From the NCBI GenBank assembly GCA_963847595.1, contig CAWKAJ010000002.1, forward strand, positions 1,597,914 through 1,661,913: a stretch of 64,000 nt of DNA, given 5' to 3'. Within the stretch, counting starts at the first letter, position 1. Each line of letters starts with the position of its first letter. A model generated the notes under the pieces. It saw only the letters and a program-made list of their open reading frames with translations. It ran no database searches and was not told the DNA's origin. Shown here piece after piece: positions 3,678 to 17,970 of the stretch. Origin of the DNA: an uncultured Chloroflexia bacterium (lineage in GTDB: Bacteria > Chloroflexota > Dehalococcoidia > SZUA-161). Position numbers and translations under genes: made by a program.

Positions 3678-4961
3678 TTAGCCCAGCCCCATGGTGGAGA
3701 AGAACTCGGAGAACCTGTTCTTCAGGCGGTCTATCGAAGTGTACCTTTTGTCGAAGAGGTCAACCCCCAGAGCCAAAAAGGGCACGCCGATGTCGCGGCA
3801 TACCTGGCGCATGATGCCTATGCTGGCGGACCCATCCTTATGGCCCATATGCGCGGGCCAGACGACGCAGTCTATCTTGTAGTCTTTGACTAACTGAACG
3901 ATGTCATTGGCAAGGGTATCAGCGGTACCGTGAACCTGCCTGACCATGGGCAGCTCGCACAGATTCCTTTTGGCCAGGCCTCTGAACATGCTTTCCTCGC
4001 TCGAGGTGTCAATCAGCGTCTGGGATGCGTAACCCATCATGTCCATCACTATGCAGGCTCCCCACTCCTCTCTGAGCCACTTTGTCAGCTCGGATAACCA
4101 CAGAGCGGGAACGTCAAACCATAACAACCTTATCCTTTCGTTCGGCGCATACCCTTTGCCCTCTTTAACCTGCTGCTTTGTAATGTTGACAAGCTTCCTG
4201 AACCACGCGGTGCCTCTGGGGTCGCCAACCATGAAGTTTTGAGCGATATTCCAGGCCTGCGCTCCCTTGGTAGTGGCGGGAGGACAGGGCACGGCACGCC
4301 TCAGCTCATTATATTTTGCCCACAATTTGTACTGTTTGTTGGATTCCTTGACAACCTCTCTAAGCTGGTCGGTATCCAGCTTGCGCCCGGTCTGTTCTTC
4401 GAGGAAGGACACCATCAGACGCAGTTCGTGAGCGTGAAAATCTACGCTGTGCTCGTTTTCCCAATATGGGGGGTCGGTGCAGAAGACCGGCACGTTGCGC
4501 CAGTAGTCATCGTGAGCTATGGCCTGATGCAGCATAGTCGCACCGTCGCAGGGGGAGAGCAGGCCGACAAATGCGGTGGGCAGAGGCACGCGTGCAGCCT
4601 GAACGTTACTGATACCCAACCTGATGAGGGTGCAGGTATCGGTGCCCAGCCCGAACCTGACGGCTTCATCGATTTCTTCCAGAACAAACGGTGCACGGGT
4701 GGGCAGGTAAGTCACCAGCAGAAGCGGATACCAGGGGAGGTCCAGGGCAACCAGCAGCTCCGGGGCGTTCCCGTAGGAGGTGGCGATGAAAGGCCTGCCC
4801 TCTTCGGCAGCCTCAATGATGCGCTGGGCGGTCTCCAGCATTGCCTCAATCAGGGTTGTAGAAAGCTGGTTTTCGGGCGAACGATTCTGCCCGGACATCT
4901 GAAGAATGAGCTGCAGGGCATCGCGCTCCTGCTTGAAGTGCTCCAGGCCTCTGATAGCCAT
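3678..4961 (-). CDS. 2-hydroxyacyl-CoA dehydratase family protein, paralog 2
   Basis: Starts MAIRGLEHFKQ. Collinear with paralog 1 over its full length. Tandem duplicate. Confidence 0.65.
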   Translation of the reverse strand: MAIRGLEHFKQERDALQLILQMSGQNRSPENQLSTTLIEAMLETAQRIIEAAEEGRPFIATSYGNAPELLVALDLPWYPLLLVTYLPTRAPFVLEEIDEAVRFGLGTDTCTLIRLGISNVQAARVPLPTAFVGLLSPCDGATMLHQAIAHDDYWRNVPVFCTDPPYWENEHSVDFHAHELRLMVSFLEEQTGRKLDTDQLREVVKESNKQYKLWAKYNELRRAVPCPPATTKGAQAWNIAQNFMVGDPRGTAWFRKLVNITKQQVKEGKGYAPNERIRLLWFDVPALWLSELTKWLREEWGACIVMDMMGYASQTLIDTSSEESMFRGLAKRNLCELPMVRQVHGTADTLANDIVQLVKDYKIDCVVWPAHMGHKDGSASIGIMRQVCRDIGVPFLALGVDLFDKRYTSIDRLKNRFSEFFSTMGLG

Positions 4962-5136
4962 CGCTCTCTCCCCTATACTTCGTGAGATGCCTGCCAGGGT
5001 AAAATTATCCTAGAATGAAATACGGTGCAAGTCAACAGGTAGGAGAGCGAGGGATAAATATCGGTGGCTTTGTTTTTCGATTCACCGCAATAGGGCAGCA
5101 GTCGTTAGAAGGGATGGTTAAGGTATAGGTGTTGGC

Positions 5137-6948
5137 TCAGGGGAGATTGCCCACAGCCGTCGCCGTGTGGTCGGAGTCCATAGTTACTGTTATCGGATTC
5201 TCTCCGGTTGAGTTCCCCACATCAACCTGCCACTGGTCAAAGCTGCACCCTTCGCCTGTCTCTGCAGTGAGCGTAACATTACCGTTTTCAGGAGTGGAAA
5301 ATGCGGTGGTATCACCAGCAGGCACAGTCTGGTTACCGCAGGGCAGGCCTTCTACCAGAATGGGACAGCAGCCGTTAGAGGTCACGGTCAAAGTGTGTGT
5401 GGGATACCCCGCTGTGACATTGCCTGATGGCCAGTCTATGCTGGCGCAGTCCCACCACTCGTGATTTGACAGAGTCTTGTTCCCTTCGAAGACCAATTCA
5501 TCATTAATCCATATCTTTACTGTTGCCGTAGAGAGAAGACCGGTGTCGTGATCCGAATAATAGTAAACTTTGTATTGATAGATGCCGTTAAAAGGCGGAG
5601 CAGCCAGAACTATGTACTCCGGGCCGTAGCCATCTTGGTTATCCACATCTAATGAGGGGTCACCAGTACTATTACCGCCAGACCTATCCCAGTCAGGATT
5701 CGGGTTGGCAAAGTAGCAATCACCGAACGGATCATTCTCAGTATAGCACGGTGCGATGAGGTGGCTATCGAGGTCGGTATTGTTGGTGTCCCAGGTGAGC
5801 TCGGCTTTTATGGCGTATAACTGAATATTCGCATTGACCGTAACTGTATCGTTCCCTGTCTGGCCACTCGCATCGGTGGCAGTCACAGTTATGCTGTTCG
5901 AGCCTGGAATCAGCTCGACCTGGGTGCTGAAGCTATAGTCATAAGTGCTGTTACCCTGAAGGGTCAACGGCAGAGAACGTGTTTCGCCATTAAGGGTAAT
6001 AATCGCCCCAGTTTCACTATTGACCTCATTCGTGCTGGTCACATTACCTGACACTGTGAGCAGCCTGTTATCCGTTGCAGAACCGTCCTCAGGGCTGGTT
6101 ATCTGCACCTGCGGAGCACCACCACCTGGGGTTGGCGTTGGCGTAGGCGTCAGTGTTGGAATAGGAGTCGATGTAGGCGTGGGAATAGATGCTGGCTGGT
6201 AATAATATTGCGGTGGTACATTGGTAGGTGTCGGTGTAGGCGTAGGCGTTGGGGTAGGTGTGGGTATCGGTGTTGGTGTAACACTAGGTGAGGGGTTAGA
6301 GGGTGGGCAACCCACACATGCAGATGATTGCATGCCTGTGCCCACCAATACTGTCACGTTATTGGCTGTAAATCCTACATCACCTTCTTCTGAACTTAAG
6401 GTGGTGTTACCATCTATCCCTACCAGCACCGTGAATATCGTACCTCTAACAACCGCAGAAGCGGCCGGGGTCTCGACCTCGTATTTAGACTCGGAATCTA
6501 CGAGTTTTTGCACGCGGTTGACAGTGTTCCCAACCAGTTGCTTCAATCCGATAGTGGTGGAGCCGGTGCCTGAAAGGCTCATCTCATTGATGAGTATTTC
6601 GGTGTCAGCCTGCACCTCCATAGTGCTGCCTTCAAAGAAGAGGAGCAGGGCAGTACTGTTGCCACCCGTCTTGAGCTGGTCTCCCGCCTCGAGTTTCATA
6701 CCGGCAACGGCTTGTACCCAGGTTGTAGTACCCTGTTTTTGCACCAGCACCTCTCCGCTGAGAGATGAGATAGTGCTGGGAGGGGAACTGGTAGCAGGAG
6801 TAGGAGTAGGAGTGGGAGCAGGGCTAGGAGTAGCTGTCGGTGTCGGAGTGGCTGCTCCCTGTCCACCACAACTGACAAGCGGCACCAGCAGCATTAGTGC
6901 CAGCAGTAAGGCGATATATCTGAAAGCCATTTGGACCTTAGTAGTCAA
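5137..6948 (-). CDS. Secreted lipoprotein with a FecR-like domain, two Pro/Thr-rich linkers, Ig-like middle region and a C-terminal beta-rich domain
   Basis: Lipobox-like LVSCGG after the signal peptide. FecR-like block [37 protein letters not shown]. Linkers (PT)n. Many N-x-S/T sequons. Confidence 0.55.
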   Translation of the reverse strand: MTTKVQMAFRYIALLLALMLLVPLVSCGGQGAATPTPTATPSPAPTPTPTPATSSPPSTISSLSGEVLVQKQGTTTWVQAVAGMKLEAGDQLKTGGNSTALLLFFEGSTMEVQADTEILINEMSLSGTGSTTIGLKQLVGNTVNRVQKLVDSESKYEVETPAASAVVRGTIFTVLVGIDGNTTLSSEEGDVGFTANNVTVLVGTGMQSSACVGCPPSNPSPSVTPTPIPTPTPTPTPTPTPTNVPPQYYYQPASIPTPTSTPIPTLTPTPTPTPGGGAPQVQITSPEDGSATDNRLLTVSGNVTSTNEVNSETGAIITLNGETRSLPLTLQGNSTYDYSFSTQVELIPGSNSITVTATDASGQTGNDTVTVNANIQLYAIKAELTWDTNNTDLDSHLIAPCYTENDPFGDCYFANPNPDWDRSGGNSTGDPSLDVDNQDGYGPEYIVLAAPPFNGIYQYKVYYYSDHDTGLLSTATVKIWINDELVFEGNKTLSNHEWWDCASIDWPSGNVTAGYPTHTLTVTSNGCCPILVEGLPCGNQTVPAGDTTAFSTPENGNVTLTAETGEGCSFDQWQVDVGNSTGENPITVTMDSDHTATAVGNLP

Positions 6949-9147: not shown

Positions 9148-10155
9148 CTAGCTGCTCACGCTGAAATAGACTGTTATTGAATCTGTTTCTCCGGAGAGAA
9201 CATCCTGGAATGCCAGATCAGCTTTGTATTGTCCCACGGGAGCGCCCGGCAGCAGGTCTATGTACAAGGCGCCCCAGAGATAGTTGGGGACTGTGTCCAG
9301 TTGCGTTCGGTGAAAGTCAACCGGACTCGTCCCGCTCATGTAAAGCTGCCCATCGGGGCCATATACTTTAACATCGGTTACTCTGTACCAGACTTCGTAT
9401 GTACCGTTAGAAGCGTTCCATGAAAGGTCTGACGCCTCAAAGTAAATCCAGGCCCTCTCCCCCGGGGCAAAAATGGCATCAGGCCTAATCGTATAGTCTC
9501 TGTCTCCGCGCACATCTGAGCATATTTTGACGTTACCTATTTGAAAAGCAGAGGGCGTTGAAGGAGTGCCTCCTGGAGTGGCGCCGGACCACTCCCCTGC
9601 GTTCACTGTCACTGTTGCCCCTTGGGCGGTGAACCAGACAGTACCCTCATCACAATGGATAATGGTGAAGCCATTAACGCCGACATAGGAGTTAAAAGCA
9701 GTCCCCCGCACCACAGCCGAGCCTGCCGGTGTGTCCACTTCATAGCTGGACCCTGAATTGACAAGTTTTTGCACGCGGTTGACAGTATTACCTACAAACT
9801 GCTTCAAATGGATGGAGGTTGAACCCGTGTGAGGGTCAAGAGCCAGCTCATTTAGAAGGATCTCAGAATCGGCCCCGACTTCTACTACGCTTCCTTCAAA
9901 GAAAACAATTTCAGCTGTACTGTTCCCACCGGTTTTGAGGCTGTCACCCTCAAAGACTTTCATGCCGGAAACGGCTTGAATCCAGGTGGTGGAGCCCTGC
10001 TTCTGTACCAGTACCTCTCCGACAGGGGATGATATGGTGCCAGCAGCCGTAGCAGTTGCTTTGTGATTTCCCAATAACACCAACACCAGTGCAACTATGA
10101 TGGCTACCGCCAGTAAAGAGCCCGTCGATATTAAGAGCTTTCGGTGCTTACGCAT
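9148..10155 (-). CDS. Membrane-anchored FecR-like domain protein, paralog of the N-terminal half of 5137..6948
   Basis: N-terminal TM helix, then [45 protein letters not shown], collinear with the 603-aa protein. Confidence 0.55.
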
Positions 10156-10197: not shown

Positions 10198-11214
10198 TCA
10201 ATCCGGTCTACGTCTCCTAAACCACCCAAGGATCAGGAAAACAAACAAAGCCACAAATAACATTCCGCCTATTATCTCGCCTACCATGGCCCAGGGAACC
10301 GCAGCGGCTCCGGGTGCTGGGGTCGGGGCAGGTGTCGGACTCGCTGTCGGCGTTGGTGCAGGCGTAGGCGTTGGTGCTGGCGTGGGCGTTGGGGTAGGCG
10401 TCGCCGTTGGCATGGGTAGCGGTAAATATCCACCACTACCTATCCCGCCTATAATGCCCCAGGTGACCGCGAGTTCCCCCCCTGCAGGGATCGGAGTCGG
10501 CGCAGGCGTTGCTGCCGGCGTAGGCGTTGGTGCCGGCGTGGGCGTTGGTGCTGGCGTGGGCGTTGGTGCCGGCGTGGGTATGGGCGCAAGGCCTAGCGTC
10601 TGTCCCTCCGAGGTCAACTGGACGACTACGATGGTTACAGTCAGGGTATAACTCTGGCCCTGGGGCACTATTTGTCCGGGTTCGGTGCCAACGCCTATGG
10701 ACAGGGCGCCAACCACCTCTTGACCAGCATCTATAGTCTGGTTCAGGTCTATTCCACTAAGTGTGGCAGTCAGCACCGATGTATCAGGGTTCTGAATATC
10801 TATGGACTGGACAATGCCGGGAGTATTCTCTTGATTGCTCAGTCCGAAGAAAACAGTCGGATAGTAGCCAGGATAGGCATTGCTAAGAGTAATGCTAATG
10901 GTGTCCGCGTTCTCGTCGATTGAGGCGGTCGTTGCTGCCACGTTACCGCTAAACCTTCCACAGGCGACACCTGGTGTCTGTGCCTGATAAGGGTCGTTAC
11001 CATTATCGCCGAGGTCAATTCCACTGGGATATTCAGCCGACGTTCCGATGTGGTTGTTATCATTTGATTCCACCCAGGAGAAGGTGCAGAGGCTATTACC
11101 GCCCGGATCAGGGCTGCCGTTGGCATAGGTGATGCCGATAGCTCCCAGTGCTATCAGTGACACTATCAGGACTAACAACGCCAGCCCTAACTTGTCTCTT
11201 TTTTCCGTTATCAT
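10198..11214 (-). CDS. Secreted TasA-like protein with SipW-cognate-type signal peptide, two (PT/PA)n linkers and a C-terminal TM anchor with RRRRPD tail
   Basis: N-terminus [24 protein letters not shown] resembles the TasA signal (LGLALVGGGTWAAF). Core motif [17 protein letters not shown] is shared with the next two genes. Confidence 0.5.
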
Positions 11215-11261: not shown

Positions 11262-12137
11262 TTATGGTACAGCCGTAACGGTATAAGTAATCGTTACCAC
11301 ATAATTTTGGATGCAATCCTGATGGAAAGTGATTGAACCAAATACCTCCTGGCCAGGAGTAACGGTGGCCTGGCTAGCAAAGATACCACCAAGAGTGATC
11401 TTCAAGTCATCAGAGTATGGCGTATAGGAACAGTTGACAGTTACCTTAAGATTGACGCTTCCAGTGTTCTTAATAGTGCAACCAACCGAACTGTAATATC
11501 CTTCATAGGGATTTGTCAGAGTGACAGTCAACTGCTGCGTCCCTGCGCCAGTCACAGTAGTCTGAGCGTCATTGCTGTGACTCCTTGTTCCACTCCAATT
11601 CGAGGATGTTAAGGTGCCGCCGGTCCAGTTCCAGGTGCCCGCTGATGACGGGTCAAGGCTATTATCATGAGTACCGTCGTCATTCGTCACTGCCTGCTGG
11701 CACTGTGCCTGAGGGGTAGTGAACGTTTGATCTTGACCGTACACCGTAAAGAATCCCACTCCTTTGGCTCGGAAGTGATATTTAGTACCGCTTTGTAAAT
11801 TGCTCAGGGCAGCCGTAAAGGCTTTTGGAACGGCTCCGTTCCAAGATGATGGATTCCCTGCCACAGTACCGAGATTATAAATGGGATAATGAGCAGCATC
11901 ACCATATTCAAAGGATACGGTAACACCGCTATTGCCAGGACCCAGGCTATTCAGACTCCCATTAAGAGTAGCTGAAGTAGCGGTTACACTGCTTGCAACA
12001 TTAGTGGTCACTCCTGGGGCTGCGGCAATAGACACAGTCGCTGAAATATGCAAGGGCTGTGACCACCTGGCGTAGCTCACGCCCAGTATTCCCATAGCCA
12101 ACAATAAGACCAGGCAAATCAAGCCCAGTTTCTTCAT
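11262..12137 (-). CDS. Secreted TasA-like protein with SipW-cognate-type signal peptide (paralog)
   Basis: MKKLGLICLVLLLAMGILGVSYARWSQ. Motif TNPYEGYYSSVGCTIKN. Thr/Gly/Ser-rich, beta-rich. Confidence 0.5.
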   Translation of the reverse strand: MKKLGLICLVLLLAMGILGVSYARWSQPLHISATVSIAAAPGVTTNVASSVTATSATLNGSLNSLGPGNSGVTVSFEYGDAAHYPIYNLGTVAGNPSSWNGAVPKAFTAALSNLQSGTKYHFRAKGVGFFTVYGQDQTFTTPQAQCQQAVTNDDGTHDNSLDPSSAGTWNWTGGTLTSSNWSGTRSHSNDAQTTVTGAGTQQLTVTLTNPYEGYYSSVGCTIKNTGSVNLKVTVNCSYTPYSDDLKITLGGIFASQATVTPGQEVFGSITFHQDCIQNYVVTITYTVTAVP

Positions 12138-12293: not shown

Positions 12294-12914
12294 TTACTGG
12301 TTCTGGCTAGCAGTAACGGTGAATGTAACTGTATAGCTTCCACCCGTTTTCGGCGGGTCTGATGAGGCTCCACCGTTGGTGCCAACACCGATAGTGATTG
12401 TGCCGACAGCAGACGCGCCAACGGCAATAGGAACGGGTCCGGCGGCTAGAGAACCGGTGACCGCTACAGCGAGGTCTGTCGTGGCTCCGCCACCTGAATT
12501 AACCTGCGTCTGCGGCCCACTTGCAACAACCTTTATTGGGACACTGCCGGTATTCGCAACCTGGACGGCAACTGACCCAAAATAGCCGGGATAGGCATTG
12601 TTGATGGTGACAGTCAGAGTGTCACCAGTGACCGTGGTGGTCGTTATGGCGACCGTTGTGTTCCCTACATTTGTGCTTGCCCTCGTCCCGCTGTCCCAGA
12701 CACCACCGCTCCATGAGCCTGCACTACTTGGGTCAAGGATATTACCAGGAGTACCGTCGTCATTGGATACTGCCGACGCGAACTTCGCGCCGAATGTTCC
12801 GGTGTTGACGTTAGCCGTAACATTCAACGACTGGCTCCACGCGGCGTAGCCCACGCCCAGCGCGCCCAGCGCCAGGACTACCACCAGGACTATGAGACCA
12901 ACTTTTTTGTTCAT
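12294..12914 (-). CDS. Secreted TasA-like protein with SipW-cognate-type signal peptide (paralog, 206 aa)
   Basis: MNKKVGLIVLVVVLALGALGVGYAAWSQ. Motif NNAYPGYFGSVAVQVAN. Confidence 0.5.
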   Translation of the reverse strand: MNKKVGLIVLVVVLALGALGVGYAAWSQSLNVTANVNTGTFGAKFASAVSNDDGTPGNILDPSSAGSWSGGVWDSGTRASTNVGNTTVAITTTTVTGDTLTVTINNAYPGYFGSVAVQVANTGSVPIKVVASGPQTQVNSGGGATTDLAVAVTGSLAAGPVPIAVGASAVGTITIGVGTNGGASSDPPKTGGSYTVTFTVTASQNQ

Positions 12915-13793
12915 TTTGTTTCCTCTCCTGTTTTATCTTCGTTTTTTGTCTCTGGATATATTCCCGTTTTTGTTTCTAATTTTTGGTTTCACCCTCCGAT
13001 GCCGACTCATGGGGGCCCCCTTCCACCGATGCTGTGGAAGACCGACCAGGGCTCGCTAGCACCGTGCTCCAAGCCAGGTGTTTTTATCTCCAGAACTAAC
13101 TTCTCATCACCCATAGGAATCATCCCTTTCTCAACTCAGGAATATTTCACGTGGAGAAATCCCTTTTACAAAAGAAAGACCGACCTAAGAAGGTCGGTTT
13201 CACCATTCGCTCGCCGCTGCTTAGGTGACCAAATACAAGCAACGGTTCCCTGCCACCTGTTAATTGCGAGGACGATATGCAGTTTTGGGGTCGTTTGGGG
13301 ACGAATCGACCCGCCAAAATGCAAGCCCCCAGATCTAGTTGCTATCGATATTAAGCTGCTCACCTCCTGCCGCGTAGCGCCTGCTTCCCTGAGGTTCCTC
13401 TGCCGCTCAGCCAGTGATGCCTCTGGGATGGCCTTGTACTAGTGCACAGGCCAGAGATAATTCGGAGCTGAATTCAATCCTCCTTGGTGTAATGCTTCAG
13501 CCATTGCCCCAACAGGTCTCTGGCATTGGAGCAACACAAATACCATGCCCTTTAGTATAGAATATCCTTGGGGAATTAATTACTCGGATATCCCCCCCTT
13601 TTTTGGCAAAAAACACCCCATTTATTGTCATGCATAATCGTCATGCTCTCCGCAAGTAATTTTGCGCCTTCACTCAATGTATGCCCTGAAAAATATAGCA
13701 GGGAAACCTTCGAGGACTGGCGTGTCAAACCCGAACTTTACGACTAGCGGAGAAGAGGCAAGAGCAGTTTCGCACAGTTGACGGTATGGACAC

Positions 13794-13882
13794 CACGGAT
13801 CTCAGCAGACGGATGTCACATATCTGTAATAAGCATAATCGGAACGTGCTCGATGTCGCTAAATCTCCGAAACAAATACAAA
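13794..13882. repeat. About 90-bp direct repeat, copy 1 (copy 2 at 17225..17315)
   Basis: ccacggatctcagcag..acatatctgtaataagcataatcggaacgtgctcgatgtcgctaaatctccgaaacaaatacaaa matches 17225..17315 with few mismatches. Confidence 0.5.
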
Positions 13883-13934
13883 TGCATGTAGGTATTACTG
13901 CTGACCGTCACAGTTAGTGGAATAGGCCTGGACC

Positions 13935-14133
13935 AGATTATGCATGTCTGCCAAGGAGGCCGTCGGCGCCCTGTCAATACGCGTCGGTACCAAACCTGGA
14001 CAAATAGTGCCCCAGGGCAATAGTTATACTGCGAGTGTAACCATCGTAGTCATCCAGTGTACCCAAAGCGGACACACGCTAGTCGTCGGTGCCACCTCCC
14101 TGCCCGCCCCGGCTATTACCTGACAGCTCGAAC
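13935..14133 (+). pseudogene. Inverted C-terminal fragment of a TasA-like gene (paralog of 10198..11214)
   Basis: Translates to [34 protein letters not shown], versus [34 protein letters not shown] in the 338-aa protein. No N-terminal part. No ORF called in the tract. Confidence 0.5.
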
Positions 14134-14385
14134 GGTGCTATGGCCGGCACACTGACCAAGAGCGGCAGCTATAACCTCACTGTCCAAGTGAAGATAGCGC
14201 TGGCGGCAGGGCGATAGCGAACCTCTCAATTAAGACCAATTAGGCCGCATTCGCGGTTGATTCTATCTCGCAAAATGGTATAATAAACGAACAGAACTGT
14301 CGCCTGAAAAAATTCTCACGAAGCGTATTGATTTCGCCTTCTCTCTTGACGTATTTTGCCCCCTCATCTTAAACTGTTCTAGCCA

Positions 14386-15573
14386 TTGCAAGAGTTCGTG
14401 GTGGAGCTTATATATATGAGCAGCGCTATCACTTGCGGCTTGGTTGGTGCAATTTACGTCGTCATAAACGTTTTACTCCCCCATATCGCCATTGACACAC
14501 TCATCAAGGCTTATGTATTCCAGCCGTTGCTGTGGGGACTCCTTATCCTGGCCATCCGTTTACTGCCGGGCTACAGGCCACTGGCGAAAATCAAGGCTAG
14601 GGGCACGTTCATCCAGGTGGCCCTAGGGATTGCTTTCGTAGAGGTACTCCTTAATGTCATTAGCGGACTGTTTTCTAGCTTCGGCAAGAACCCGGCGTCC
14701 CTCACCACGTTGGGCATCACTGAGAACCTGTTTTTTGTGGGCTCAATGCTGGTCGCCATGGAGCTGAGCCGGGCATCGCTGGTCACGCGCCTGGGAAAGC
14801 GGCACAGCTTTCTAGCGTTGGCTTTTGTGACTCTGCTCTATACTTTTATTGCCATCCCATTAAGCCAGATTACCAGCTTCAAGCTGCAAATTGGATCAAC
14901 CAACTTGGTGATTTCCACCTGGTTGCCCCTACTGGCGGAGAGCTTGCTGGCGTCATTTCTCGCCTTCATAGCCGGAGCGCGCGCCTCGCTGGCTTACCGC
15001 AGCCTGTTGGCAGCTTTCTGGTGGTTCTGTCCTATCCTCCCTAACGCGACCTGGGCGCTCAAAGGACTTATCGGCGTCGTCGTGCCAATCGTGGGGATAG
15101 TAGTTGTAAGCAGGTTTTATTCGGCACAAGCCAATCGAGGCAAAGCTAGGCGGCGGGCAAGCAAAGCTTCCTTCCCTGCTGGTTGGATTACTGTCATGCT
15201 GGTAGCTGTGGTAATCGTCTGGTTCTCGGTGGGAGTTTTTCCGTTTCAGCCATGGGTCGTGGGCAGCGGCAGCATGACTCCCGTGCTGCGGACCGGCGAC
15301 GTTGTCATTGTCGATAAGGTGTCGGCGGATGCCATCAAGGTGGGTGATATTGTCGAGTACCGGGAAGCTGGACACAGTGACATAGTTCACCGAGTAATAA
15401 GCATTGAGCAGACAGGACAAGCGAAATCGTTCATAACCAAGGGTGACGCCAACACTCTGCCCGATGCAAACCCGGTCATGGCGGCAAATGTGATAGGGAA
15501 GGTTGTGTTCACTATACCTAAGGTTGGCTGGATTGCTCTTGGCATAAAGAAGCTATTGACAACGAGGACATGA
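14386..15573 (+). CDS. Signal peptidase I of the SipW/ER type (S26 family), fused to an N-terminal polytopic membrane domain of about 290 aa
   Basis: C-terminal GSGSMTPVLRTGDVVIVDKV..DIVHRV..TKGDAN has Ser and His catalytic motifs. The N-terminal region is very hydrophobic with multiple TM helices. Confidence 0.6.
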   Translation: MQEFVVELIYMSSAITCGLVGAIYVVINVLLPHIAIDTLIKAYVFQPLLWGLLILAIRLLPGYRPLAKIKARGTFIQVALGIAFVEVLLNVISGLFSSFGKNPASLTTLGITENLFFVGSMLVAMELSRASLVTRLGKRHSFLALAFVTLLYTFIAIPLSQITSFKLQIGSTNLVISTWLPLLAESLLASFLAFIAGARASLAYRSLLAAFWWFCPILPNATWALKGLIGVVVPIVGIVVVSRFYSAQANRGKARRRASKASFPAGWITVMLVAVVIVWFSVGVFPFQPWVVGSGSMTPVLRTGDVVIVDKVSADAIKVGDIVEYREAGHSDIVHRVISIEQTGQAKSFITKGDANTLPDANPVMAANVIGKVVFTIPKVGWIALGIKKLLTTRT

Positions 15574-17153
15574 GTGGTAGACTTAAACCTAAAACGATTG
15601 CTTCAGGTAATAAAGGAGGCCCAACTCCAGTGAGAAGGTACCTTCTTCTTGTGGTCAGCGCAGTCCTGCTATTTGTGTCACTAGCTGGCGTACTGGCTAC
15701 GAACGGCATACCCACCCAGATAAAGAAAGAGGCGGCGCTGGTCAATTATGAGCATGAAGGCACATTTGATTATCTGATACACTTAAAGCCCTCTGCGCTG
15801 TACGGTTCTGCGCCTACGTCATCATACCCGGCAGCGATTGTTGGCTCGCTTGATTTCACCTTCAGCTATAACCCGGTGGAGAGCGTACCAGAGTCGGCTT
15901 CAGTAGATGCCATCCTGGAAAATCCGGGCATCTGGCAAAAGAAGATTGTACTGGTGCCAGAAACGACTACCACGGGGAATTTCACTTGTAGTTTTTCCCT
16001 CGACATAGACCAGATTATAAAGCTATTTGACGATACTGAGAGTGAGCTCAACATTCCTTCTTCGGAGCGCTACTTATCTATCGAGGCTGATGTTACAAAT
16101 TCGAGTGGGGTCTTTACCCAAAGCCTGCCCATCACGCTAACCGATACAGTGATTGACGTGAGCAACGGCCTGAGCTACAGGCAGTTTTCGGGAACTGGCA
16201 GCTTCCAATATATTGTGAACCTGAAGCCAAACTCGACCTTCGATACCTCAACCCTCGAGCCGCCACAAGCCGCAGATAATGCATCCCCCACTCTTGGGCC
16301 GGGACAGACAGTGTTCTCCCAGCTTGTTGATGGCATGGATGCGTCCTTCCAATATGCGTTTAACGCCGATAAGCCCGTTGCGAATGTGACCACGGATACA
16401 CAGATAACAGCCAGCATAGACGTACCCAACTTCTGGTCGAGAACGTTCCCTGTGCTGAGCGTCAGTAAGGGCGGGAATTTCACCATCGATTTTCCTATCG
16501 ACCTGGCCGGTTATCTGAACTTGCTTGACGCCTTTAATGCTGAGACAGGCGTAGCATCTGCTTCCTCGGAGGTAGCTGTTGACGCTCAGGTCCATACCGT
16601 TGGGCAAAGCCAGTTCGGCCCGATAGATGAGACATACAGCCAAGAGATGAAGGGTACGATAACAGGAGGTGTCATCGAGTGGCAGACGGAATTGACCAAG
16701 ACCCAGACCGGTGCCACACAACAGGTCACGCTGGTTAGCAATGCCAGCAAATATTTGGGGCTTTCCGTCAATAGGGCAAAGACTCTGACCAGGGCTCTGA
16801 CAGCAATATTCCTTCTCTTCCTTGTGGTCTCCTTAATACTGTATTTTAGATCCAGACGTGCGCTGCGCCCCCCCATAAATATGGAAGCGTTGCAAATCCA
16901 GAAAAAGTACAGGCAGAGGATTGCTGAAGCGACAAGTCAAACGCCGTCAGAAAACGGGGCTCTGATAAATTTGGGCTCTATGGAAAGCCTGATCAGCGTA
17001 GCCGATGAGCTGGGCAAACCGATAATCCACCAGGCACCAGGCACTCCTGAAGGACGACACGCTTACTATATATTGGATGGAACAATACGATACCAGTACC
17101 TGCCCTCTAGCGGCATTCTGGAACAGAACAACGATATGGAAGAGACTGGGTAG
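15570..17153 (+). CDS. Bitopic membrane protein with a large extracytoplasmic domain containing an internal duplication, translationally coupled to the signal peptidase
   Basis: Shares an atga start/stop overlap with the upstream gene. TM helices sit near both ends. Internal repeat: EGTFDYLIHLKPSALY versus TGSFQYIVNLKPNSTF. Confidence 0.45.
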   Translation: MSGRLKPKTIASGNKGGPTPVRRYLLLVVSAVLLFVSLAGVLATNGIPTQIKKEAALVNYEHEGTFDYLIHLKPSALYGSAPTSSYPAAIVGSLDFTFSYNPVESVPESASVDAILENPGIWQKKIVLVPETTTTGNFTCSFSLDIDQIIKLFDDTESELNIPSSERYLSIEADVTNSSGVFTQSLPITLTDTVIDVSNGLSYRQFSGTGSFQYIVNLKPNSTFDTSTLEPPQAADNASPTLGPGQTVFSQLVDGMDASFQYAFNADKPVANVTTDTQITASIDVPNFWSRTFPVLSVSKGGNFTIDFPIDLAGYLNLLDAFNAETGVASASSEVAVDAQVHTVGQSQFGPIDETYSQEMKGTITGGVIEWQTELTKTQTGATQQVTLVSNASKYLGLSVNRAKTLTRALTAIFLLFLVVSLILYFRSRRALRPPINMEALQIQKKYRQRIAEATSQTPSENGALINLGSMESLISVADELGKPIIHQAPGTPEGRHAYYILDGTIRYQYLPSSGILEQNNDMEETG

Positions 17154-17224: not shown

Positions 17225-17315
17225 CCACGGATCTTAGCAGGCAAAGGTTACATATCTGTAATAAGCATGATCGGAACGTACTAGATATCGCTGAATTCCC
17301 GAAACAAATACGAAC
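17225..17315. repeat. About 90-bp direct repeat, copy 2
   Basis: Matches 13794..13882. It overlaps the 3' end of the vWA-like reading frame. Confidence 0.5.
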
Positions 17316-17970
17316 TCGTTGGGGTTGCCGTCGGAGGCGAAGATGACTAAATCAGGGTGGTCTGGACGATTATTGGGCCCTGCCAAGTAATTGTATGCTG
17401 CGAGCAGTCCTTGCTCCCAGTTAGTAGATTGAGTGCCTGGTAATCTCGTTGCATCAATCGTTGTCTTAATCAAAGCCGCATTATTGGTGAAATCCAAACC
17501 AGGATGGGCAATGGTGCCGAAGTCCACCAGCGCGAACTCGGTAGGCGTGCCGGGGAGAAGGGCATCAACAAAACCATTGAACGCCGTCCGCATCTGATTG
17601 AGCTCGGCGTCGGAGTAGGCACTCTGTTTGCTACCGTCACAGTAATAGTGTCGATGTCATGCCAATCGTTAACGTTGCCCCTATATTGTGATCTTATACC
17701 ATACTGACCATCGGGCACGGTGGTCGTATCCCAGGGCACAGCATGAGGGCTTTGGCCTTGTCCCCCAACTGTTGTCCACGAACCACTGCTATCAAGTCTG
17801 TACTGGAATCGTTGGGTATTGTGAAGCGAGCCTTCGCTAATCTGTATAGTCCCGCTTACGGTAGCTCCATTGGTTGGCTGAGTAATATTTGCCGTGGCTG
17901 GCCCTGCAAGTGATAGCGCGGCCGTGGTCAATGCGACAAATAACCCAGGGATGCTGAAATTTAATCCCAT
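17234..17970 (-). pseudogene. Probable frameshifted secreted Ig-like plus vWA-domain gene
   Basis: The signal peptide and Ig-like module (ITQPTNGATVSGTIQI) run in one frame. The vWA-like C-terminus (DLVIFASDGNPN) lies in another frame from about 17600. Stops sit upstream of the second frame. Confidence 0.35.

Follow-up and report, generated by a model that had tools for sequence, protein, structure and literature searches.

We analyzed a 64,000-nt stretch of DNA (the window) from an uncultured Chloroflexia bacterium (GTDB lineage Chloroflexota; Dehalococcoidia; SZUA-161), which corresponds to positions 1,597,914 to 1,661,913 of contig CAWKAJ010000002.1. The locus considered here encodes a type I signal peptidase (SPase I) fused to a large membrane domain, followed by a gene of the DUF5305 family and accompanied by three divergent genes for proteins similar to AbpX of Pyrodictium abyssi. 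The genes are listed below in window coordinates (aa, amino acids; TM, transmembrane helix; HMM, hidden Markov model).

14416..15573, + strand: fusion gene, 385 aa, a CPBP-like 8-TM domain followed by an SPase I of the endoplasmic reticulum (ER)/archaeal type (HMMs, AlphaFold2 model)
15570..17153, + strand: DUF5305 (TafG-like) bitopic protein, open reading frame (ORF) of 527 aa (PF17231)
12294..12914, - strand: AbpX-like fibre subunit, 206 aa, candidate major subunit, with a signal peptide ending in LGVGYA before AWSQSLNVTANVNTG (profile comparison with AbpX, 9sj2)
11262..12137, - strand: AbpX-like subunit, 291 aa, candidate minor or tip subunit (AbpX profile, E 1.7e-24)
10198..11214, - strand: AbpX-like protein, 338 aa, candidate membrane-anchored base subunit (cognate signal peptide, C-terminal TM)

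The two plus-strand ORFs named in a preliminary description of this DNA are present as stated: 14386..15573 (395 aa from TTG 14386, the longest ORF of the fusion gene) and 15570..17153 (527 aa). The real start of the fusion gene is likely ATG 14416, yielding 385 aa, since it is preceded by a Shine-Dalgarno-like GGTGGAG and the 385-aa version is stored identically in public databases. Residues of the fusion protein are numbered from this ATG.

A word-indexed protein search returned 663 relatives of the fusion protein, the best 120 of which are 52-100% identical to it over 83-98% of the query and are mostly about 384 aa long; more than 100 proteins align over 93-98% of it with 53-82% identity. 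When only the N-terminal 245 aa served as query, an exhaustive HMMER search retrieved 582 cluster representatives at E<=1e-3; among the best 150 of these, 121 carry a near-complete peptidase domain, and the other 29 are mostly fragments or frameshifted. The genomic relatives come from metagenome-assembled genomes (MAGs) of Dehalococcoidia/Chloroflexota, with 43-54% identity, from a single archaeon of the Hadarchaeota, with 37%, and from a single MAG of the Actinomycetota, which makes a Dehalococcoidia-type bacterium the most likely source of the window. An AlphaFold2 model, built with an alignment of 94 representatives (28-52% identity) that also underlies all conservation counts below, is confident across both domains (mean predicted local distance difference test score, pLDDT, 93.6; predicted template modelling score, pTM, 0.86). 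The preliminary description had raised the possibility of an artefactual merge of two genes. As an error of annotation or assembly this explanation is refuted, and we assign it practically no probability, because nothing was found in its favor, hundreds of independent metagenomic and genomic copies share the same length and align over their full length, and the model holds over both domains. The joining of a peptidase to a large polytopic membrane domain is supported by HMMs, by the model and by conservation throughout the family, and is a genuine, conserved architecture.

The model contains ten TM helices, in agreement with hydropathy and the positive-inside rule. Eight belong to the N-terminal domain (aa 2-240); an Arg/Lys-rich cytoplasmic linker of lower confidence leads to TM9, the anchor of the peptidase (aa 255-272), and TM10 (aa 371-384) follows the catalytic domain. 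The extra domain is therefore polytopic, as first proposed, while its size is corrected from about 290 to about 240 aa with eight helices, TM9 being the peptidase's own anchor. The parts of the fusion gene are as follows.

14416..15135, + strand: N-terminal domain, aa 1-240, 8 TM, CPBP/Rce1-like fold (AlphaFold2 model)
14761-14763 and 14770-14772, + strand: E116 and R119, invariant, on TM4
aa 89-94 and aa 205-210, + strand: near-invariant N-domain motifs FGxSPY and SPxLP(N/D)
15178..15570, + strand: TM9 anchor, S26 catalytic domain and TM10, aa 255-385 (TIGR02228, SEC11A alignment, Foldseek)
15271-15273 and 15388-15390, + strand: catalytic residues S286 and H325, accompanied by D344 and D350

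The C-terminal part is assigned to the ER/archaeal-type S26 signal peptidases (S26B, Ser-His) by several lines of sequence comparison. It scores 103.4 bits with TIGR02228 (sigpep_I_arch; cut-off 51.85) and 33.7 bits with PF10502 (cut-off 22.9), and human SEC11A and SEC11C are its sole relatives in a phmmer search of solved structures. The segments VVGSGSM(S286)TPV, DIVH(325)RV and TKGD(344)ANTLPD(350) pair with VVLSGSMEPA, PIVHRV and TKGDNNAVDD of SEC11A, so that S286, H325, D344 and D350 fall on the catalytic positions of the S26 family, and the peptidase type proposed in the preliminary description holds. S286, H325, R326 and D350 are invariant in the alignment, and the catalytic set as a whole is invariant or at least 98% conserved. 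SEC11A and SEC11C also rank first in a Foldseek search of the whole model against PDB. In the structural comparison that gave the CPBP-like fold described below, the other high matches (SipA, LexA, lambda cI, SEC11A, LepB) belong to the peptidase domain. With the SipW equivalog model NF046067 (SigPepSipWBacil) the protein scores 73.8 bits, below the cut-off of 190; by this measure the peptidase is SipW-like and no SipW ortholog. It also departs from the usual S26B architecture of about 150-200 aa and one or two TM, having 385 aa and ten TM.

The modelled fold of the N-terminal domain is CPBP/Rce1-like, showing the eight-helix arrangement of Rce1. Structure prediction, which the preliminary description had recommended, assigned the domain to a CPBP-type fold, CPBP being among the families that this description had named for profile searches, yet no sequence-profile match accompanied it. 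Scans of the N-domain with Pfam, NCBIfam and PHROGs, using the 94 single sequences and the family consensus (E<=10), recognized no family; the scattered chance matches included Rce1-like in 1 of 94 members (E 0.02), and weak matches to DUF7546 of Pfam were found in 2 of 94 fusion proteins (best E 8.7e-4). An HMM of the domain searched against all PDB sequences gave chance matches alone (E>0.2), with no CPBP chain among them. Models of exosortase, archaeosortase and rhomboid families did not match the N-domain even at E<=10.

Conservation within the domain is concentrated in a few positions. All 94 sequences have E116 and R119, in the context G-M-E-L-S-R-A on TM4, and near-invariance extends to W40, G84, F89, G90, P93, N104, P171, G187, Y194, P206, L208, P209 and P224. 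Across the 94 relatives, His does not exceed 30% and Cys does not exceed 20% in any column of the N-domain, and there is no conserved Ser/His pair of the rhomboid GxSG type. A Cys-Arg-His catalytic set is also missing from the domain, C205 being Ser in 69 of 94 relatives.

The canonical CPBP motifs are EExxxR, FxxxH and HxxxN/D (PMC12260438), and all three are invariant in the six annotated CPBP genes from plasmids that served as the comparison set for hhalign. The alignment of the N-domain profile to these six is non-significant (Prob 1%, E 0.055) and colinear over 208 columns. The pairings within this non-significant alignment are coherent: R119 stands at the Arg of motif 1 and E116, with a gap of one residue, at its second Glu. 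The family itself has E116-x-x-R119 on TM4, with a single Glu and one residue fewer between Glu and Arg than in EExxxR. In the same register, the Phe of FxxxH falls on F/Y142 (73 of 94), and the position of the motif-2 His (aa 146) is variable. An invariant G-x6-Y of the CPBP proteins matches G187-x6-Y194, P206 (93 of 94) stands at the motif-3 His, and N/D210 (81 of 94) at the motif-3 N/D. The simplest reading is that the N-domain is a true, highly diverged CPBP domain with both catalytic His replaced, and hence a pseudo-protease, like SpdC, LnsB and SpbR.

Alternatively, the CPBP-like domain could still be an enzyme, a non-canonical intramembrane glutamic protease that makes a second cut coupled to signal-peptide removal. 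Such an enzyme might degrade the released signal peptides of abundant subunits, as a built-in signal-peptide peptidase. The invariance of E116 and R119, the high conservation of N/D210 and Y194, and a fold that is that of an intramembrane protease family are in line with this possibility, and CPBP enzymes with a sorting function exist (myxosortase, PMC11980579). However, both Rce1-type His are absent and no substitute His or Cys column is conserved, and the same E...R remnant is found in SpbR, where its mutation was without effect (PMC12260438). We consider an active protease unlikely, although it is the strongest of the competing explanations.

The N-domain also occurs in other contexts. In longer members of the family, CBM96, SdrD_B/SpaA, three LysM or DUF11 extracellular domains are added after the last TM of the peptidase (locus L014 of Hadarchaeota, 4247-6352; proteins P0227, P0247, P0253 and P0279). 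A triple fusion with DUF5305 was considered for these long proteins and ruled out, as the appended domains differ and none is DUF5305. In P0348, a metagenomic representative of 955 aa, the same 8-TM domain (33% identity, E 3e-19) is joined to GAF-PAS-HisKA-HATPase-REC and no peptidase is present, which suggests that the domain can act as a membrane sensor or ligand-binding module.

The second gene encodes a DUF5305 protein (PF17231, 91.7 bits against a threshold of 29). It more likely starts at GTG 15630, which lies 10 nt after AAGGAGG and gives the 507-aa protein called in databases. With this start the ATGA overlap with the fusion gene, previously taken as the junction of the two genes, is probably not their real junction; in relatives the gaps between the two genes, measured from the longest ORFs, are 2-325 nt. 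The parts of the protein in its AlphaFold2 model are listed below.

15627-15704, + strand: first TM
15717-16184, + strand: beta-sandwich 1
16191-16739, + strand: beta-sandwich 2
16767-16856, + strand: second TM
16872-17099, + strand: cytoplasmic alpha/beta domain

The model (pLDDT 82.9) places the first TM at aa 20-45, sandwiches with one helix each at aa 50-205 and 208-390, the second TM at aa 400-429 and a conserved cytoplasmic alpha/beta domain at aa 435-510. The internal duplication seen in the preliminary description is supported by both sequence and model: residues of about 60-215 and about 206-390 are 21% identical over 185 aa (pairwise E 3e-11) and form the two sandwiches of the ectodomain. 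The protein is bitopic, as proposed, but does not have a TM at each end, since a cytoplasmic domain of about 100 aa follows the second TM. DUF5305/TafG proteins are treated as accessory subunits of signal peptidases (PMC11821415; bioRxiv 10.64898/2026.01.04.697558), and no AbpX/TasA-like domain was found in the 527-aa protein. The anchoring or assembly role first suggested for it, by analogy with TapA, is therefore not supported, and the AbpX-like protein of 338 aa is a better candidate for anchoring.

The three divergent genes (206, 291 and 338 aa) are paralogs. A profile of 33 homologs of the 206-aa protein matches AbpX (PDB 9sj2) with E 3.8e-19, and TasA with E about 0.1. The sequence QWSETLSLSATISTG, with which mature AbpX begins, aligns to AWSQSLNVTANVNTG, with QWSETLS pairing with AWSQSLN; the cut is therefore predicted between LGVGYA and AWSQ, and small residues occupy positions -3 and -1 of this site in the 206-aa precursor. 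Immediately after it the 206-aa protein has a donor-strand motif, conserved as W-x-x-L-x-x-x-G-x-V-x-T-G. The 291-aa protein shares this signal peptide and donor strand and is 39% identical to its 206-aa paralog; its AbpX core, for which the direct match to AbpX is weak, is preceded by an additional domain of about 100 aa. All three window subunits share a stereotyped signal peptide that ends in LGxxGVGYA before xW, and a signal peptide of the form MKK-h-region-LGxxGVGYA heads every AbpX-like gene in the 11 related loci compared for this feature. Several homologs of the 206-aa protein are labelled by JGI as 'SipW-like signal peptide' proteins.

The 338-aa protein carries the cognate signal peptide and lacks the W-x-x-L donor strand; it has two Pro/Thr-rich linkers, followed by a C-terminal TM helix and the tail RRRRPD. 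We consider it a candidate base subunit because a donor-strand fibre needs a groove-only, cell-bound subunit at its base, and this role is closer to that of TapA or AbpB than anything in DUF5305. Tandem repeats of 18 nt at 10292-10602 encode both (PTPA)n linkers and are prone to length variation. Most related loci contain a larger subunit of this kind, with the signal peptide and without the W-x-x-L strand; its C-terminus is a TM helix in some loci, a Trp-rich tail in others and neither of these in the rest. Base subunits with non-TM ends are found at 7149-7868 of L005 and 6635-7300 of L010, and as proteins of about 361 aa in L007, L009 and L012. Examples of the Trp-rich tails are WGWWGHWNCWNWCNCWGCKGWW and NNWWRWFWWRWW, and other proteins end in ...VVCWFE; such tails may provide an alternative attachment to the envelope.

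These C-termini bear on two of the explanations for the N-domain. An active protease might trim the base subunit at its C-terminal anchor, in the way that myxosortase acts on MYXO-CTERM proteins, and the 338-aa C-terminus indeed looks tripartite (linker, TM helix, RRRRPD). However, the anchors of base subunits vary (TM, Trp-rich, none) and share no motif, while the N-domain is constant. The preliminary description had speculated that the domain could act as a sorting or anchoring platform analogous to exosortase or archaeosortase, with the 527-aa protein in the TapA role. A polytopic membrane domain does adjoin secreted surface proteins here, and one substrate has a C-terminal TM with a basic tail. 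Nevertheless, no shared C-terminal sorting motif was found among the substrates, a TM with a basic tail being confined to the base subunit of some loci, the domain has neither a profile match to these families nor a conserved Cys or His column, its fold matches CPBP proteins, and the 527-aa protein belongs to DUF5305/TafG. This proposal is largely refuted and we give it only a very slight chance of being correct.

The gene content of up to 14 related loci supports a functional link between the fusion gene and its neighbors on both sides, as had been anticipated from the window. AbpX-like genes adjoin the fusion peptidase in 11 of the 14 loci, and a DUF5305 gene lies directly downstream of it in all 12 loci with downstream sequence. 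In nine related loci, three to six AbpX-like ORFs, the fusion peptidase and DUF5305 follow one another in this order on a single strand, an arrangement that recurs in Dehalococcoidia, and the Hadarchaeota and Actinomycetota loci also have AbpX-like genes flanking the peptidase. The window thus has the genes of an AbpX-type fibre locus: the ten-TM SPase I lies beside a DUF5305 gene, and the AbpX-like subunits carry SipW-type signal peptides and, in the 206- and 291-aa proteins, a donor strand at the N-terminus. The three genes with cognate signals are linked to the fusion as stated in the preliminary description, and lie on the strand opposite to it. Since the subunit genes of relatives are co-directional with the peptidase, the subunit block appears to have been inverted in this genome.

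The same gene order speaks to the question of substrate range. The fusion protein could be a general, housekeeping or otherwise broadly acting SPase, with the fibre genes merely some of its substrates and an unrelated function for the eight helices, and no other SPase gene occurs in the 64-kb window. However, the gene order with AbpX-like and DUF5305 genes is tightly conserved across lineages including archaea, the signal peptides of the substrates are unusually stereotyped, dedicated peptidases of the SipW/TafD type are the norm in TasA-superfamily loci, and the N-domain hardly ever occurs apart from the peptidase. A housekeeping role is thus improbable in our view.

Regulatory elements and further features around these genes are listed next.

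13183..13265, - strand: cyclic di-GMP (c-di-GMP)-II riboswitch aptamer (RF01786, 57.4 bits against a gathering threshold of 53.5, E 4e-10)
13179..13198, - strand: terminator-like hairpin with a T-run, candidate expression platform, overlapping the 3' strand of the aptamer
14257..14284, + strand: sigma-70-like promoter match TTGATT-16-TATAAT with an upstream TG, before the fusion gene (consensus match alone, 10 of 12 positions)
13899..14110, + strand: remnant of an AbpX-like anchor gene, 212 nt (inverted repeat, 75-79% identical to 10565-10775 in the 338-aa gene)
9148..10155, - strand: membrane protein with a FecR domain, 335 aa, which closes the run of minus-strand genes after a 42-nt gap (PF04773, 34.6 bits)

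The riboswitch is full-length (model positions 1-84) and belongs to the leader of the subunit operon, where it precedes the 206-aa gene, encoded on the same strand, by about 270 nt. RF01786 was also found near 4 of 9 related loci (L002 3505-3587; L004 3218-3301; L012 2508-2591; L007 4076-4158, on the opposite strand). It fits a matrix fibre induced by c-di-GMP, although the direction of the switch is our prediction.

A direct repeat of 90 nt (84% identity) at 13793-13882 and 17225-17314 brackets the peptidase and DUF5305 pair, and may be a trace of the rearrangement that parted this pair from the subunit genes. Its downstream copy overlaps the end of two overlapping minus-strand ORFs at 17234-17970 (119 and 166 aa) with von Willebrand factor A-like and immunoglobulin-like features, which resemble one frameshifted gene. 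The FecR protein has an N-terminal TM anchor and is similar to the surface proteins Lsa33 and LipL45 of Leptospira. Its membership in the fibre system is uncertain, and no counterpart was found in the three related loci for which gene tables were compared.

Taken together, these observations suggest a bacterial system for biofilm fibres of the AbpX class, which belongs to the TasA superfamily. The fusion peptidase would cut the precursors after GYA and release the N-terminal W-x-x-L strand, and the subunits would then polymerize outside the cell by donor-strand complementation, with the membrane-anchored 338-aa protein as the base from which the fibre grows. The CPBP-like domain would be no protease but a built-in scaffold or gate, putatively packed against the TM anchor of the peptidase, that recognizes or positions cognate signal peptides and so confines the enzyme to them. 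The fusion would thus be a covalent counterpart of the SpbR-SpsB and SpdC-SagB pairings of Staphylococcus aureus, with DUF5305 as a further accessory subunit of the peptidase, and c-di-GMP would switch the expression of the subunits via the riboswitch. We regard this proposal, taken jointly as an AbpX-class fibre system with a dedicated peptidase, a CPBP-like non-protease scaffold or gate and c-di-GMP control, as probable on balance, with considerable room for error.

Several points weigh against it. The Foldseek search of the whole model against PDB matched the peptidase domain alone and returned no CPBP protein, which is a caveat on the fold. The cleavage site, the substrates and fibre formation are predictions from sequence. 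One relative, L003, has no recognizable AbpX-like gene within 8 kb upstream of the fusion. The invariance of E116 and R119 exceeds the need of a pure scaffold, and residual or altered catalysis is therefore possible. Finally, SpbR inhibits its peptidase, and a permanently fused inhibitor would make little sense; the analogy with SpbR therefore covers the physical pairing and not necessarily the sign of the effect.

It can be speculated further how a scaffold or gate of this kind would act. The inward-opening cavity of the CPBP-like domain with E116 and R119 may bind the Lys-Lys n-region and the h-region of the AbpX-type signal peptide, the outer loops FGxSPY and SPxLP may dock the catalytic domain, cleavage would be confined to fibre subunits, and it may be coupled to donor-strand hand-over. 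This more detailed scheme as a whole is tentative, and we think it rather less likely to be right than wrong. If true, the protein would be a natural Rosetta-stone fusion, the pairing of a CPBP pseudo-protease with an SPase I would be an ancient and widespread route to peptidase specificity in bacteria and archaea, and the histidine-kinase fusion P0348 would sense the same peptides.

Fibres of the TasA superfamily, which include TasA, Tafi, bundling pili and AbpX, increasingly look like a universal scaffold of prokaryotic biofilms, and the CPBP/Rce1 assignment bears on how the signal peptidases dedicated to these fibres gain specificity. It would join two literatures, that on fibre-dedicated SPases and that on CPBP pseudo-proteases that scaffold or regulate single-pass hydrolases (SpdC-SagB, SpbR-SpsB). 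The Dehalococcoidia, a group of bioremediation interest whose surface biology is little known, gain a candidate c-di-GMP-controlled matrix fibre.

Among known systems, the closest are the AbpX loci of bacteria and archaea, for which a dedicated SPase I with ten TM was reported together with a DUF5305 'SPase I accessory' protein, and AbpX homologs in Bacillota and Chloroflexota (bioRxiv 10.64898/2026.01.04.697558, January 2026). The window shares with them, and with the locus of P. abyssi AbpX, the AbpX-like subunits with a like mature N-terminus, the ten-TM TIGR02228 SPase I and DUF5305. It differs in that its subunit genes have the opposite orientation to the peptidase gene and are headed by a c-di-GMP-II riboswitch, and in the Pro/Thr-rich linker and TM anchor of its base subunit. 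The locus type is already described, and the window is a further example of it rather than the undescribed architecture that the fusion was first thought to be. The preprint gives no identity for the eight extra helices and never mentions CPBP, CAAX or Rce1, and a full-text search of the literature for CPBP or CAAX linked with signal peptidase, SipW or TasA found no statement of a CPBP identity, which appears to be unreported so far.

In the haloarchaeal Tafi system (TafA/TafE pilins, TafD, TafG), donor-strand fibres that also belong to the TasA superfamily are served by a dedicated SPase I, again with a DUF5305 partner (PMC11821415, PMC12337348). TafD was shown genetically to be required for the processing of TafA, and TafG (DUF5305) was proposed to assist (PMC11821415, PMC12337348). 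In contrast to the fusion protein, TafD has four TM, an N-terminal peptidase domain and a C-terminal ectodomain, without the 8-TM N-domain, and most Tafi pilins use Tat signals. The SipW-TasA-TapA system of Bacillus subtilis also reserves an ER-type Ser-His SPase I for a biofilm fibre subunit that bears the cognate signal peptide, and includes a minor subunit for anchoring or nucleation. However, SipW has about 190 aa and two TM, the fusion scores below the SipW equivalog cut-off, the SipW system is without a CPBP-like domain or DUF5305, and no TapA homolog is present in the window.

With respect to the membrane domain, Rce1/CPBP proteins (Abi, PF02517; PDB 4cad) differ in that the window domain has no Pfam match, has ExxR in place of EExxxR, lacks both catalytic His and is fused to another protease. 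SpdC (LyrA) of S. aureus in its pairing with SagB (PDB 6u0o) has a glucosaminidase as partner and is unfused, with a sequence identity of 12%. The most instructive parallel is SpbR, a degenerate CAAX-like protein with the motifs HELYMR, FIYLD and QIVAI, which forms a 1:1 complex with the SPase I SpsB, binds it via the TM helix of SpsB and controls its cleavage activity (PMC12260438). In both cases a degenerate CAAX/CPBP-like polytopic protein is paired with an SPase I, via the TM helix and ectodomain of the peptidase in SpbR-SpsB and putatively so in the fusion. The His are lost in both, and the motif-1 Glu and Arg kept in SpbR may have their counterparts in E116 and R119. The differences are that SpbR and SpsB are separate polypeptides, that SpsB is a housekeeping bacterial enzyme of the Ser-Lys (P) type, and that SpbR inhibits its partner; the likeness is drawn from architecture and motif residues. 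By this analogy the window protein looks like an SpbR-SpsB pairing made covalent, in the ER/archaeal branch of the S26 peptidases.

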